A stretch of DNA of 53,279 nt from NCBI GenBank assembly GCA_964448115.1, contig CAYUVA010000001.1:124001-177279 (forward strand), given 5' to 3'. Below, in pieces: positions 21,978 through 26,783 of the stretch (its first letter is position 1; the number at the start of each line of letters is the position of its first letter). The notes under the pieces were generated by a model, which ran no database searches, was not told the DNA's origin, and saw only the letters and a program-made list of their open reading frames with translations. Origin of the DNA: an uncultured bacterium (GTDB taxonomy: Bacteria > CAYUVA01). The position numbers were made by a program, and so were the translations under genes.

Positions 21978-22556
21978 CTATAGGATATCACGAACCAGGT
22001 TTGCCAGGGCTTTCAGATCGAGCGGTTTAGCGAACCAGTTCTCAATCTTGTAGGTCTCGAATATCCTCAAGGCTTGCGGTGTAGGATGCCTGGTAATCGG
22101 GATTATCTTGCATCCTCTTGTAACATTGGTGGAACTAAGTGTCTTGATGACATCAAGTATGTCGGTCTGTGGGATATCCATGTCGAGGATAAGGATAATC
22201 GGCTTATAGGCGCCGGCGAGGATGAGCGCTTGGTTTGGGGTCTCCACGTTGATAAATTCCAATCCCAACTTGAGCCTGCTTAGCTCGGTCTTAATTAGCT
22301 CTTGGATATGGATATCATCATAAACGATCATTACCCACTTTTCATCGACCAAGTTCTTAAGGCATTCTGGCAGCTTCATATTAGAGGCGATCATGAATTG
22401 CCTTAAGGTGTGCGGCTCTATTCTATAGTGCTTCCCTGGAGTGGTAAAAGCAGGTAGTTTTCCATCCCGGATCCACTTCTTGACCGCTTCCACACTGCAT
22501 TGGCATATCTGGGCGACCTTTTTGGTAGTGAGGAGCTTACTATGGGATTCCTTCAT
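21978..22556 (-). CDS. Excisionase-type HTH plus receiver domain response regulator
   Basis: LTTKKVAQIC...KWIRDGKLPAFTTPGKHYRI HTH; receiver elements YDD, ILD and KP. Confidence 0.88.
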   Translation of the reverse strand: MKESHSKLLTTKKVAQICQCSVEAVKKWIRDGKLPAFTTPGKHYRIEPHTLRQFMIASNMKLPECLKNLVDEKWVMIVYDDIHIQELIKTELSRLKLGLEFINVETPNQALILAGAYKPIILILDMDIPQTDILDVIKTLSSTNVTRGCKIIPITRHPTPQALRIFETYKIENWFAKPLDLKALANLVRDIL

Positions 22557-22683
22557 GGCATGATCACAAGGTTGTTAAGCCGGGGTTATTCTACTTGTCC
22601 ACACAAGCGGTGAACCTATCAATAGCCCCAGCGGTTGTCAATAGCAATTTTGTTATCACAACATCTTCACCTTTATAATAAAT

Positions 22684-22712
22684 AATATACTTTATAGTTA
22701 AATTCTTGTCAA
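22684..22712 (-). promoter_or_regulatory. sigma70 promoter for the response regulator
   Basis: TTGACA-17 nt-TATATT on the minus strand. Confidence 0.6.
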
Positions 22713-22931
22713 ACACTTTTTATTCAAGAGTCATGTAGCTGAACACCTAATATATACAAATCCTTACAAGCACCACATAACTTATTAACATGTTCTATGC
22801 CCCTTTAAATATGACTTCCATCAAGTTTGTATCGGATTGATTGGAAATTATATAGAATATTCTTATGAACTATTATCCCTTATGTAAAGATATTTTTTTT
22901 ATTTTTTTAAGACCGATTTTGCCGATTCCTT

Positions 22932-22947
22932 TGGCACATCAATTGCA
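22932..22947 (+). promoter_or_regulatory. sigma54 (-24/-12) promoter
   Basis: TGGCACA-TCAA-TTGCA differs from TGGCACG-N4-TTGCW at one position; AT-rich upstream region; predicted +1 near 22958. Confidence 0.7.
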
Positions 22948-22962
22948 TACATCTTATATGTA

Positions 22963-23152
22963 AACCCCCGATCGCTTGGTGAATACCTTAGCAAAGACAT
23001 AGGGCTTGAGTAGGTAGAGAGAGATTCGAGCCGAGCTCCCCGATTTAGAGAACCTGATAGAAAGGGGAGTTCGGCTGGGGGGCAACAAATTAACCACCCA
23101 ATGACAATTATTGTCATCGAGGGATCGGCTCTCAAGCGCATCGGGGAGGGTT
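22963..23152 (+). ncRNA. Putative structured ncRNA or leader RNA (family not recognised)
   Basis: The 5' end AACCCCCGATCGCTTG pairs with the 3' end CAAGCGCATCGGGGAGGGTT. Internal 13-bp stem 23029-23041/23064-23076; perfect 8-1-8 repeat ATGACAAT-T-ATTGTCAT at 23101-23117; T-rich tail follows. Confidence 0.55.
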
Positions 23153-23273
23153 AGTTTATTTATGCAAATCGTATCTACCAGTAGCCTGCCCGGTAATTTA
23201 TTTTTTGATTTAAAGATGCTATTATCGAGTACCGGAAACTAAGCATTTAATCTCTTTCAGAAAGGGAGCGTAG

Positions 23274-24626
23274 ATGAAAAAGCAAGGTGGATTATTCAGC
23301 GTTCTGGATAGGCACTTTAAGTTAGTCGAGAACAATACGACCATTAGGCAAGAATTCTTCGGCGGAACTACTACATTCATGACCCTTTCCTATATTATCT
23401 TCGTGCAGCCGATAATTCTCGGCGCAGCCGGCATGGATAAGGGCGCGGTAATGATGGCGACCTGCATAGGCTCGGCGATCGCTACTTTAATGATGGCTTT
23501 TCTAGCAAACTATCCCATAGCCTTGGCGCCTGCAATGGGGCACAATGCTTTCTTCACCTATGTAGCCTGCATGACAATGGGATTCACCTGGCAGCAATCG
23601 CTGGCAGCCATTTTTATCTCAGGCATCTTGTTCATCGTTCTTTCTACCATCCAATTCAGGGTAAAGATCATGGAGGCTGTGCCTGGCTGCCTTAAGAACG
23701 GCATCGCTGTTGGCATCGGGCTTCTAATCACCTTCGTCGGCTTGCAGTATGGCGGTGTGGTGGTCGCTCACCAGGCTATCCTGGTGCAATTGGGCAACCT
23801 GACCAGTCCACCGGTTCTGCTCACCGTGTTCTCCTTGATCATCATCGCTGCTTTGCTGATTTACAAGGTTCCCGGCTCTATCCTTTGGGGGATAATTATC
23901 ACCGCCATAGTCGGTCTGCCCTTTGGATTGACCCATTACCATGGCATCATACAGAGACCGCCAAGCATCTCACCGACCTTTTTTCAGCTCGACTTCTCCA
24001 GGGTCTTCTCTGCTGATTTTCTGATGATCATCTTTGTATTTTTCTTTTTGGATCTGTTCGATACGGTAGGAACTCTCATCGGAGTATCGCAGCAGGCTGG
24101 TGTGATGCGAGATGGGAAGCTCCCCAAGGGGCAGCAGGCTCTGCTTTCGGATGCGATCGGCACTTCATGCGGCGCGCTTTTAGGGACTTCCACTATCACA
24201 AGCTACATCGAGAGCGCATCCGGGGTGGCGGTCGGCGCCAGGACCGGACTGGCAAATGTCTTTACCAGCATGTGGATGCTGCTGGCGATCTTTTTCTCAC
24301 CGCTGCTTATGATGGTCGGGGGAGCTTACCAGACGCAAAGCGGAATGAGCCTTTACCCAGCAATAGCCGCCCCGCTTATCATAATCGGTTGTTTCATGAT
24401 GAAAAATGTAACCAATATCTCTTGGGATGACTATACCGAGGCGATACCAGCATTCTTGACCATCGTGATCATGACACTGTCGGTCAACATCACCGAGGGG
24501 ATCTCCTTCGGTTTCATCACCTATTCTGCATTAAAGTTGATATCTGGAAGGGGCAGGGAGGTCAACTGGATAATCTATCTATTCGCCGTGCTTTTTATTC
24601 TAAGATACATATTTCTTCACTCCTAG
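23274..24626 (+). CDS. NCS2 family (AzgA/PbuG-type) purine permease
   Basis: TTFMTLSYIIFVQP, ANYPIALAPAMG, DLFDTVGTLIG, TSYIESASGV..GARTGL; AAAGGGAG RBS. Confidence 0.95.
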   Translation: MKKQGGLFSVLDRHFKLVENNTTIRQEFFGGTTTFMTLSYIIFVQPIILGAAGMDKGAVMMATCIGSAIATLMMAFLANYPIALAPAMGHNAFFTYVACMTMGFTWQQSLAAIFISGILFIVLSTIQFRVKIMEAVPGCLKNGIAVGIGLLITFVGLQYGGVVVAHQAILVQLGNLTSPPVLLTVFSLIIIAALLIYKVPGSILWGIIITAIVGLPFGLTHYHGIIQRPPSISPTFFQLDFSRVFSADFLMIIFVFFFLDLFDTVGTLIGVSQQAGVMRDGKLPKGQQALLSDAIGTSCGALLGTSTITSYIESASGVAVGARTGLANVFTSMWMLLAIFFSPLLMMVGGAYQTQSGMSLYPAIAAPLIIIGCFMMKNVTNISWDDYTEAIPAFLTIVIMTLSVNITEGISFGFITYSALKLISGRGREVNWIIYLFAVLFILRYIFLHS

Positions 24627-24758: not shown

Positions 24759-26783
24759 ATGAAAATGGAAACAGGATTACCAATAAATTTGGCAGATATT
24801 CTTCATCATAGATCAGTAGAAAGCACTAGAGTTGAATATAAAAGCACCTGGAATGATAAATCTAAATCCTCAGTAATCCGCACCATCTGTGCTTTTGCTA
24901 ACGATCTTTATAACCAAAACGGTGGTTATGTGATAATAGGCGTTGTAGAAGACGACAACGGAAATCCAATTTTACCCCCAAAGGGAGTGGAGCAATCAAA
25001 ACTTGATATTATCCAAAAAGAGATTATAGGTGCTTGTAAAGGATTGCTAGTTCCAGAATATATCCCTTTGATTTTTTTAGCTTCATATACACAACGAGAC
25101 CTAATAATTATATGGTGTCCTGCTGGAGATAATCGTCCATATTCTGCCCCTAAAAGATCTGGCAAAGGGATGGATTATTATATTAGAAGCGGAAATACAA
25201 CGATTGAGGCACAGGGTGATCTAAAAAGGCAGTTACTTGAGCAGGCGGCTAAGATACCATTCGATGATCGAAGAAACCATGATGCCAAAGTGGAGGATAT
25301 TTCATTCTATCTAGTGAAGAAGCACCTTGAGAATGTTAGGAGTTACCTAACTACCGAATTAGAATCCTTTGATAAATTGGGCATTTATCATCGTCTTAGA
25401 TTGTTGATTAGGATGGATGGGTATGAGGTTCCAAGAAATTTTGCTTTACTATTTTTTAATGAATCACCTGAACAATTTTTCCCGGGAGCATATATTGAGG
25501 TTGTACAGTTTGATGATGACGCAGGGGGAGATCTGATTGAAGAAAAACAATTTCGTGGTCCTCTTCCAGAACAAATAAACTCAACACTAAAATATCTGGA
25601 AGGCTTGGGCGGTACATTGGTACACAAAATTCCCAATCAAGCAGAAGCGAAAAGGACAGTTCCATACCCCTATGAAGCTATGGAAGAAGCAATTGTCAAC
25701 GCTGTTTATCATAGAAGCTATGAAGATTCTCAAGAGCCAGTGAAAGTTTATTTGTATCCCAATCGCATGGAAATAACTAGCTACCCCGGACCGGTTTCGG
25801 GTATTAAATTAGAGCATCTTGAGCCTAATAGTGCTATGCCCGCGGTACCTGCACGTAATCGACGCATTGGTGAATTATTGAAAGAGCTACGCTTAGCAGA
25901 AGGAAGAGGTACAGGTATCCCTAAAATTCACAGGAGAATGGCAGAAAACGGCTCCCCGCAGGCTCGCTTCGATTTCGACGAGAATAGAACCTATTTTAGA
26001 GTTATCTTACCTGTACACCCTAAATATCAAACGCTTCATTCGCTCCGTGAGGCTACACACCTCTGGGCAATAGGATACCAAGATAGAGCACTTGAAATAT
26101 TGAAGAATGCTTTTAACTCGCAGCCGTCCTCTGCCGTGATTGCAAGTCAATTGATTGAATACTTGATGAAACTCGAACAATTGGATGAGGCAAACAAGGT
26201 TTTTAATCGATTCAAAGAACAACCAATTGGGGAGCAAAACTCCCAGCCATATTTGGTTTATGCTAAGGAATTGCTTGATCTGGGCATCAGGAAGAAGATG
26301 GAAGATCTTCAAAAAAAAGCAAAGGAAGTATTGAACTCGCTGCCTGCTCACCCTGAATCTTATGAAAATATCGTTAGTGAAGCAATATTGCGAAGGAGAA
26401 CGAGAAATAATAGACAAGCTCACAAGCTCTTCGAGAAAGCCTATGCGCTAAATCCCGACGATCCAAAGCTACTCCATGAATTTGCACAGACCAAAATGGA
26501 TATTGCCCGTAACTGGCGTTTAAATAAAGATATTAGAAGAAAGCTCACCAGAGAGGCAATTGAACTTTTTAGACAAGTAATTCAACTAACAGATGACAGG
26601 ATTAGAAAGGCGTGGTGTTGGTATAACCTTGCAAAAGCGCTCAATTGGATGAGGGAACCGGTCAGCAACATAGAAGAAGCCTATAAAGAAGCAATATCTC
26701 TTCATCCAGATAATGAAATTATTCTGCAAGCATATAACAATTGGAAGGATGCTAAAGGAAAATCTTCAAAAAAGCCATACTAG
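24759..26783 (+). CDS. Schlafen/AlbA_2 domain + HATPase_c_4-like domain + C-terminal TPRs
   Basis: ESTRVEYK, ICAFAN..GGYVIIGV, YYIRSG; EAIVNAVYHRSY, RNRRI...LAEGRGTGI; TPR ends AYALNPDD and AISLHPDN. Confidence 0.85.
   Translation: MKMETGLPINLADILHHRSVESTRVEYKSTWNDKSKSSVIRTICAFANDLYNQNGGYVIIGVVEDDNGNPILPPKGVEQSKLDIIQKEIIGACKGLLVPEYIPLIFLASYTQRDLIIIWCPAGDNRPYSAPKRSGKGMDYYIRSGNTTIEAQGDLKRQLLEQAAKIPFDDRRNHDAKVEDISFYLVKKHLENVRSYLTTELESFDKLGIYHRLRLLIRMDGYEVPRNFALLFFNESPEQFFPGAYIEVVQFDDDAGGDLIEEKQFRGPLPEQINSTLKYLEGLGGTLVHKIPNQAEAKRTVPYPYEAMEEAIVNAVYHRSYEDSQEPVKVYLYPNRMEITSYPGPVSGIKLEHLEPNSAMPAVPARNRRIGELLKELRLAEGRGTGIPKIHRRMAENGSPQARFDFDENRTYFRVILPVHPKYQTLHSLREATHLWAIGYQDRALEILKNAFNSQPSSAVIASQLIEYLMKLEQLDEANKVFNRFKEQPIGEQNSQPYLVYAKELLDLGIRKKMEDLQKKAKEVLNSLPAHPESYENIVSEAILRRRTRNNRQAHKLFEKAYALNPDDPKLLHEFAQTKMDIARNWRLNKDIRRKLTREAIELFRQVIQLTDDRIRKAWCWYNLAKALNWMREPVSNIEEAYKEAISLHPDNEIILQAYNNWKDAKGKSSKKPY

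Follow-up and report, generated by a model that had tools for sequence, protein, structure and literature searches.

The guanine/adenine aptamer is a three-way junction of roughly 70 nt, and the NMT1 motif is smaller. Purine-sensing riboswitches—the guanine/adenine class with its variants and the NMT1/xanthine class—are found in the leaders of genes for the transport and catabolism of purines (PMC9295807, PMC7373994). Like these riboswitches, the element analyzed here would be a structured RNA situated in the 5′ leader of a gene linked to purines, in this case an NCS2/AzgA permease, and a role in the feedback control of uptake would be logical. It departs from them in size and architecture (~180 nt, with a three-way and a four-way junction), in having no Rfam match at E values up to 10, and in context: It stands behind a sigma54 promoter, has no terminator platform, and is separated from the SD by a 127-nt spacer.

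Qrr and GlmY exemplify small RNAs whose transcription depends on sigma54, and sRNAs that act as protein sponges carry repeated GGA or A-rich loop motifs. CrcZ/CrcY and NrsZ are likewise sigma54-dependent small RNAs (PMC6292655, PMC4253122). As in those systems, a −24/−12 promoter here directly precedes ~200 nt of noncoding sequence with predicted structure, and the genome is rich in enhancer-binding proteins (bEBPs). Unlike CrcZ/CrcY and NrsZ, the element has no recognizable terminator or processing signal, no bEBP neighbor, no repeated protein-binding loops, and no Rfam match, and a permease gene in the same orientation follows its fold after 127 nt.

A more general class comprises structured leaders at the 5′ terminus of mRNAs, which stabilize transcripts or mask ribosome binding sites. 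The element resembles this class in its stable 5′ domain, ~8 nt from +1, and in an SD and AUG that are predicted to be paired; a simple 5′ stabilizer hairpin is much smaller and less branched than the fold predicted here. The element resembles the purine riboswitch leaders in its position and the sigma54 sRNAs such as CrcZ and NrsZ in its promoter, but by their defining features it could be assigned to neither group.

Genomic Setting and Probable Sigma54 Promoter

The element lies in a 717-nt intergenic gap, delimited from the sequence and the ORF list, between a response-regulator gene on the − strand and a divergently oriented purine permease gene on the + strand (Table 1). The window—the whole 53,279-nt stretch of DNA that was analyzed—belongs to an assembly of 3.98 Mb (48% GC, 86 contigs, 94% complete), and its source genome is the sole member of its phylum in the genome set searched. 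The response regulator matches PF12728 (E 7.1e-11) and PF00072 (E 3.2e-8); because Pfam finds no AAA+ domain in it, this neighbor is not a sigma54 activator. Relatives of the permease align with it from residues 1–15 onward. Downstream of the permease, positions 24759–26783 (+) encode a 674-aa protein in which Schlafen/AlbA_2 and HATPase_c_4 domains are followed by TPR repeats, an architecture that is regulator-like or defense-like.

Table 1. Features of the intergenic region and its flanking genes; positions are those of the window, and p denotes pair probability
Feature	Position	Strand	Basis
Response regulator, HTH_17 (MerR/excisionase-type) + receiver domains	21978–22556	−	ORF list; Pfam
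Sigma70-like promoter TTGACA-17-TATATT, 11/12, facing the response-regulator gene	22684–22712	−	Consensus match only
Sigma54 −24/−12 element TGGCAC-N5-TTGCA	22932–22947	+	Sequence, exact match
Closed multibranched RNA domain (candidate)	22966–23146	+	Folds, GC island, no Rfam match, single copy
P1	22966–22977/23134–23146	+	p 0.83–1.0
P2 hairpin	22984–22988/23012–23016	+	p 0.81–0.95
P3	23017–23027/23122–23133	+	p 0.5–0.82
P4, 13 bp, one G-U	23029–23041/23064–23076	+	p 0.72–1.0
P5	23077–23081/23094–23099	+	Predicted fold
P6	23101–23107/23111–23117	+	p 0.8–1.0
Perfect 17-bp palindrome forming P6	23101–23117		Sequence
AT-rich spacer, 33–34% GC, no significant structure	23147–23273	+	Folding z +0.75 and −0.20
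Possible extended −10 TGcTATTAT	23217–23225	+	Sequence
Pyrimidine anti-SD stretch	23249–23258	+	Sequence, fold
SD	about 23263–23269	+	Sequence
NCS2/AzgA-type purine permease, 450 aa	23274–24626	+	Pfam PF00860, E 1.2e-32

Within the window, the pattern TGGCAY-N5-TTGCW has a single exact match, the box upstream of the element, and taking the GC at 22945–22946 as −13/−12 places the predicted +1 near 22958. The genome encodes the corresponding machinery, with one rpoN (a single PF04552 match, 209 bits) and 12 PF00158 matches to enhancer-binding proteins (219–250 bits), plus four weak ones. Exact boxes number 22 genome-wide, nine of them outside ORFs of at least 120 aa. ORF-free DNA, which makes up 9.5% of the genome, holds eight against 0.51 expected, an enrichment of ~16-fold over shuffles whose maximum was three. 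These counts suggest that ~94% of intergenic sigma54 boxes are real, and because of this enrichment the promoter at 22932–22947 is probably real as well. The earlier note on this DNA had proposed a sigma54 promoter with +1 near 22958; the exact box, the encoded sigma54 machinery, and the concentration of boxes in ORF-free DNA all support such a promoter.

In 22690–22935, examined for an upstream activator site, no inverted repeat was found. NtrC-type patterns upstream occur at chance level only, the nearest copy (22598–22614) having two mismatches, and an NtrC-type enhancer for this promoter was dropped as a candidate, there being no site beyond chance.

Two features of the DNA around the promoter are recorded as observations. 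A 10-nt inverted repeat, 90% complementary (22943–22952/23158–23167), flanks the whole element, its left arm overlapping the −12 element; because this arm lies upstream of +1, the repeat could be relevant solely at the DNA level, and since the element is single-copy there is no sign of mobility despite the repeat. The pentamer CCGAT/ATCGG occurs seven times in 314 nt (22831–23144) vs. about once per 344 nt across the window, with two tandem copies directly 5′ of the −24 element (22913–22917 and 22922–22926). This cluster is given no weight, because it was found post hoc and four of its seven copies are the two strands of helices, in P1 and the P3/P4 region.

Predicted RNA Domain

Downstream of the promoter, the + strand is predicted to form a closed domain in which P1 encloses P2 and P3, and P3 in turn encloses P4, P5, and P6; a weaker outer extension pairs 22960–22965 with 23154–23159 (p about 0.5). 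The fold begins 8 nt 3′ of the predicted +1, and the element forms an island of 47–53% GC within a spacer of 26–34% GC. G-U pairs account for 4 of the 65 pairs in the best fold of 22958–23165. A closed, multi-hairpin RNA of ~190 nt after the promoter, with structure beginning within a few nucleotides of +1, had been described in the earlier note, and the predicted domain agrees on both counts; the 13-bp stem with one G-U pair that had been singled out there reappears as P4. The CCTTA/TAGGG hairpin placed at 22986–22990/23000–23004 did not hold up: It is absent from the best fold (p 0.02), and enforcing it costs 2.0 kcal/mol.

When both strands of 22955–23170 are folded, the + strand is the stronger, reaching −78.1 kcal/mol (z −4.88, with 0 of 200 dinucleotide shuffles as good), whereas the − strand reaches −64.5 kcal/mol (z −3.16) and is 13.6 kcal/mol less stable. 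By composition-adjusted folding energy, the 200-nt window containing the element ranks 51 among the 2078 intergenic window-strands of the genome. Its z of −4.07 compares with a mean of −0.78 (sd 1.63) in a random intergenic sample of 183 window-strands, eight of which reach z ≤ −4. The fold is thus beyond chance yet not unique: It falls in the top 2.5–4.5% of the genome's intergenic windows, and comparably good structure is present at dozens of places in the genome.

These ranks bear on the reading in which the structure has no dedicated RNA function, being a fortuitously stable stretch of 5′ UTR or intergenic DNA, or lying behind a fortuitous promoter match. Both the 8 of 183 random window-strands at z ≤ −4 and the rank of 51 are in keeping with it, as are the nil support from conservation—homologue searches in genomes and at permease loci were negative, as detailed below—and the about 0.5 exact sigma54 boxes that chance would place in ORF-free DNA. 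We nevertheless consider this reading somewhat unlikely, given that an exact box coincides with a fold starting no more than 8 nt from +1 and with a sharply bounded GC island in very AT-rich spacer, that the excess of observed over expected boxes suggests that most intergenic boxes are real, and that P1, P4, and P6 have high pair probabilities.

Known Families and Homologues

Rfam 15 returned no match in the whole window at the gathering score and none on either strand of 22700–23350 at E values up to 10, in a test that covered purine, ZTP, cobalamin, and NMT1 riboswitches, 6S, SRP, tmRNA, RNase P, and curated sRNAs. This result agrees with the earlier note, in which the element could not be matched to purine, ZTP, or cobalamin riboswitches, SRP, tmRNA, or RNase P. 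ARAGORN identified no tRNA or tmRNA. The earlier note had raised the possibility of a MITE with many dispersed copies; such copies are not seen, since the element occurs once in the genome by BLAST and once by covariance model, the other covariance-model matches having E about 2. With its predicted fold, the element is a candidate for a new orphan structured RNA.

In searches for relatives that took in some 300 further genomes and about 100 loci with a permease gene, no credible homologue of the element emerged. At the level of the phylum, the search comprised the source genome itself and no other member. BLAST in 60 genomes that share only the domain Bacteria with the source gave one 29-nt match (G058); it falls within long ORFs, in a genome that is GC-rich, and was set aside as chance. 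With nhmmer, no element was found in 100 permease loci at E values up to 100, nor in 42 loci searched in the same way. The covariance model (R1) was built from a single sequence, is weak for distant relatives, and was run with stricter filters beyond 40 genomes. Under these terms it gave 0 matches in 78 of 98 permease loci, nothing credible in 150 domain-wide genomes or in the five genomes with the best permease loci, and, in 151 genomes of one phylum containing a permease relative (that of G153), a single 38-nt match with E 0.89, attributable to chance.

The permease itself has relatives in several phyla, the closest being 56–61% identical in a protein search of genome and metagenome contigs (best identities 58% in genome contigs and about 60% in metagenome contigs). 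Their upstream regions are organized differently from the one described here: The ORF-free gap has a median of 23 nt and reaches 400 nt in 0 of 36 measurable cases (two further loci gave no measurement), vs. 717 nt at this locus. No sigma54-like box was found within 700 nt upstream at any of 80 permease-relative loci, and no Rfam family at the 40 closest. A conserved sigma54 or riboswitch link among these permease relatives was therefore rejected, on the short gaps and the lack of a box or an Rfam family. The linkage to NCS2 genes that the earlier note had suggested examining likewise failed to appear, with no R1 match in those 78 loci and no Rfam family in those 40.

Three public DNA sequencing runs, all from one sample in one study, contain the stretch, and no RNA run was listed as containing it; one of the three may be its source. 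Their contigs are identical wherever they cover the stretch. The element itself is covered only by X1, which shows no variants, X2 and X3 having no coverage there.

Possible Connection to the Permease Gene

Between P1 and the permease gene lie 127 nt of AT-rich spacer (Table 1). A scan of 22400–23400 detected no terminator-like site on the + strand. The T-rich tail described earlier exists insofar as a T run follows P1, but the run is interrupted and no + strand terminator-like site accompanies it; P1, moreover, closes a 160-nt multiloop, which is unlike an intrinsic terminator. The motif TGcTATTAT, proposed as an extended −10 for the permease, is present in the sequence, but it is not listed by a promoter scan that requires both hexamers.

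Because no terminator lies between the fold and the permease, a leader acting in cis is the likeliest role for the domain. We tentatively interpret the element as the 5′ domain of a ~316-nt sigma54-driven purine-permease leader that would be specific to this lineage, a serious possibility short of a firm assignment. The analysis shows the promoter motif with its genomic enrichment, the fold, the lack of a terminator-like site, and the lack of a known family. Under the leader interpretation, transcription would start near 22958 from the sigma54 promoter and would require one of the enhancer-binding proteins of the genome. The first 190 nt would fold into the closed multibranched domain, and, with nothing to terminate transcription between the fold and the permease, the transcript would continue into the permease mRNA. 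Transcription itself, this read-through, and any part in regulation or sensing are what we infer. Basal permease expression may come additionally from a weak proximal promoter of the sigma70 type.

Such a leader would most likely act on the stability of the mRNA or on the access of ribosomes to it, because pairing of the SD and AUG is predicted for the long transcript: In the whole-leader fold, the SD (23263–23267) and the AUG (23274–23276) have unpaired probabilities of at most 0.1. The hairpin containing the SD folds to −8.0 kcal/mol (z −1.5), with 22 of 200 shuffles as good. The pyrimidine stretch predicted to mask the SD (23249–23258) is also complementary over 10 nt to the 5′ strand of P3 (23017–23026; inverted repeat I3), and the conformer built on this alternative pairing costs 8.6 kcal/mol more. 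The complementarity may be compatible with a switch model, weakly so, since the stretches are purine/pyrimidine-rich and the chance expectation is ~0.1 by rough estimate. Against the leader interpretation stands the 127-nt unstructured AT-rich spacer before the SD, with its possible separate promoter, a layout unusual for a riboswitch-type platform. The negative homologue searches, the rank of the fold among intergenic windows, and the dissimilar upstream regions of the closest permease relatives also weigh against it.

A 26-codon ORF on the + strand (23162–23242) is a possible leader peptide by reading frame alone. Its start follows a GGAGG at a distance of 12 nt, this GGAGG being half buried in the 3′ strand of P1, and 32 nt separate its end from the start of the permease.

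Alternative Readings

An independent sigma54-dependent sRNA of ~190–200 nt, acting in trans or sequestering a protein while the permease is transcribed from its own proximal promoter, would account for several features of the locus. With P1 as its 12-bp closing helix, the domain is self-contained, and it begins immediately behind +1; a T-rich stretch follows P1, the possible extended −10 at 23217–23225 could serve the permease, and a comparable leader is missing from the closest permease relatives. In the same genome, two further intergenic sigma54 boxes (C2:86174 and C12:72962) precede noncoding RNA-like regions and not ORFs, and the chances of this reading are raised because other sigma54 promoters in the genome thus appear to drive stand-alone noncoding RNAs. 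We still judge an independent sRNA unlikely: The + strand offers no terminator-like hairpin with a U run, given the large multiloop and the interrupted T run, and the element has no bEBP gene beside it. Among the sRNA families of Rfam it has no match, and in the sequence and the fold the repeated GGA or A-rich loop motifs of protein-sponge sRNAs were not seen.

The leader interpretation could be taken further, with the domain serving as the aptamer of an undescribed class of riboswitch or protein-binding leader that would sense a purine or a nitrogen-status metabolite and gate translation of a permease mRNA produced only upon firing of a sigma54 activator. We regard this extension as improbable. 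A ligand-sensing role for the leader has no direct support, and the 40 closest permease loci are without an Rfam family. If the aptamer reading were true, purine scavenging would be under two-layer control, enhancer-dependent and by an RNA sensor, in a phylum known from a single genome.

Readings in which no + strand RNA is involved, and the element is instead transcribed from the − strand, encodes a small protein, forms a cluster of DNA operators, or is a remnant of a repeat or mobile element, are very improbable, for although the − strand also folds, has a promoter-like and a terminator-like match, and carries an 80-aa ORF, and the DNA holds the perfect 17-bp palindrome, the flanking 10-nt inverted repeat, and the seven CCGAT/ATCGG copies, the − strand is the less stable by the margin given above and has no sigma54 box, the ORF has neither relatives nor a Pfam match, the palindrome does not recur, and the element is single-copy with no tRNA or tmRNA. 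A protein-coding gene was rejected on finding no relatives of the 80-aa ORF among proteins of 44–140 aa; Pfam gave no match at E values up to 1 for this ORF or for a 43-aa ORF on the + strand. As a recurrent operator, the palindrome was discarded because it has no further genomic copy with two or fewer mismatches; 12 sites have exactly three.

If functional, the element would add a new structured RNA for a phylum with one genome in the set searched, and large sensor-like leaders preceded by a sigma54 promoter, of which there are few cases, would gain another. Its present value is that of a single-sequence candidate, a target for wider metagenome searches and in-line probing.

Other Sigma54-Linked Noncoding Candidates

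Outside the window, two further sigma54 boxes of the same genome precede noncoding stretches. Together with the element, should it be functional, they suggest that the lineage uses sigma54 promoters for regulatory RNAs. At C2:86174–86189, a TGGCAT-N5-TTGCA box has an NtrC-type palindrome ~90 nt upstream (C2:86072–86088); after the box come a GC-rich hairpin of 13 bp (−23.8 kcal/mol) and a U run, and then 272 nt before the next ORF of at least 120 aa. The candidate has no Rfam match at E values up to 1, and C2:86072–86270 has the look of an sRNA, about 75 nt long, under nitrogen regulation.

The second box, at C12:72962, lies just 3′ of a bEBP gene, with a perfect 14-bp palindrome ~40 nt upstream. 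C12:72914–73305, which has no Rfam match, is a candidate sigma54-dependent sRNA adjoining its putative activator. The stretch that follows the box is ORF-free and C-rich; it contains CCUCC three times as well as a strong GC hairpin (z −4.5 in a 200-nt window), and it ends against a convergent 788-aa ORF.
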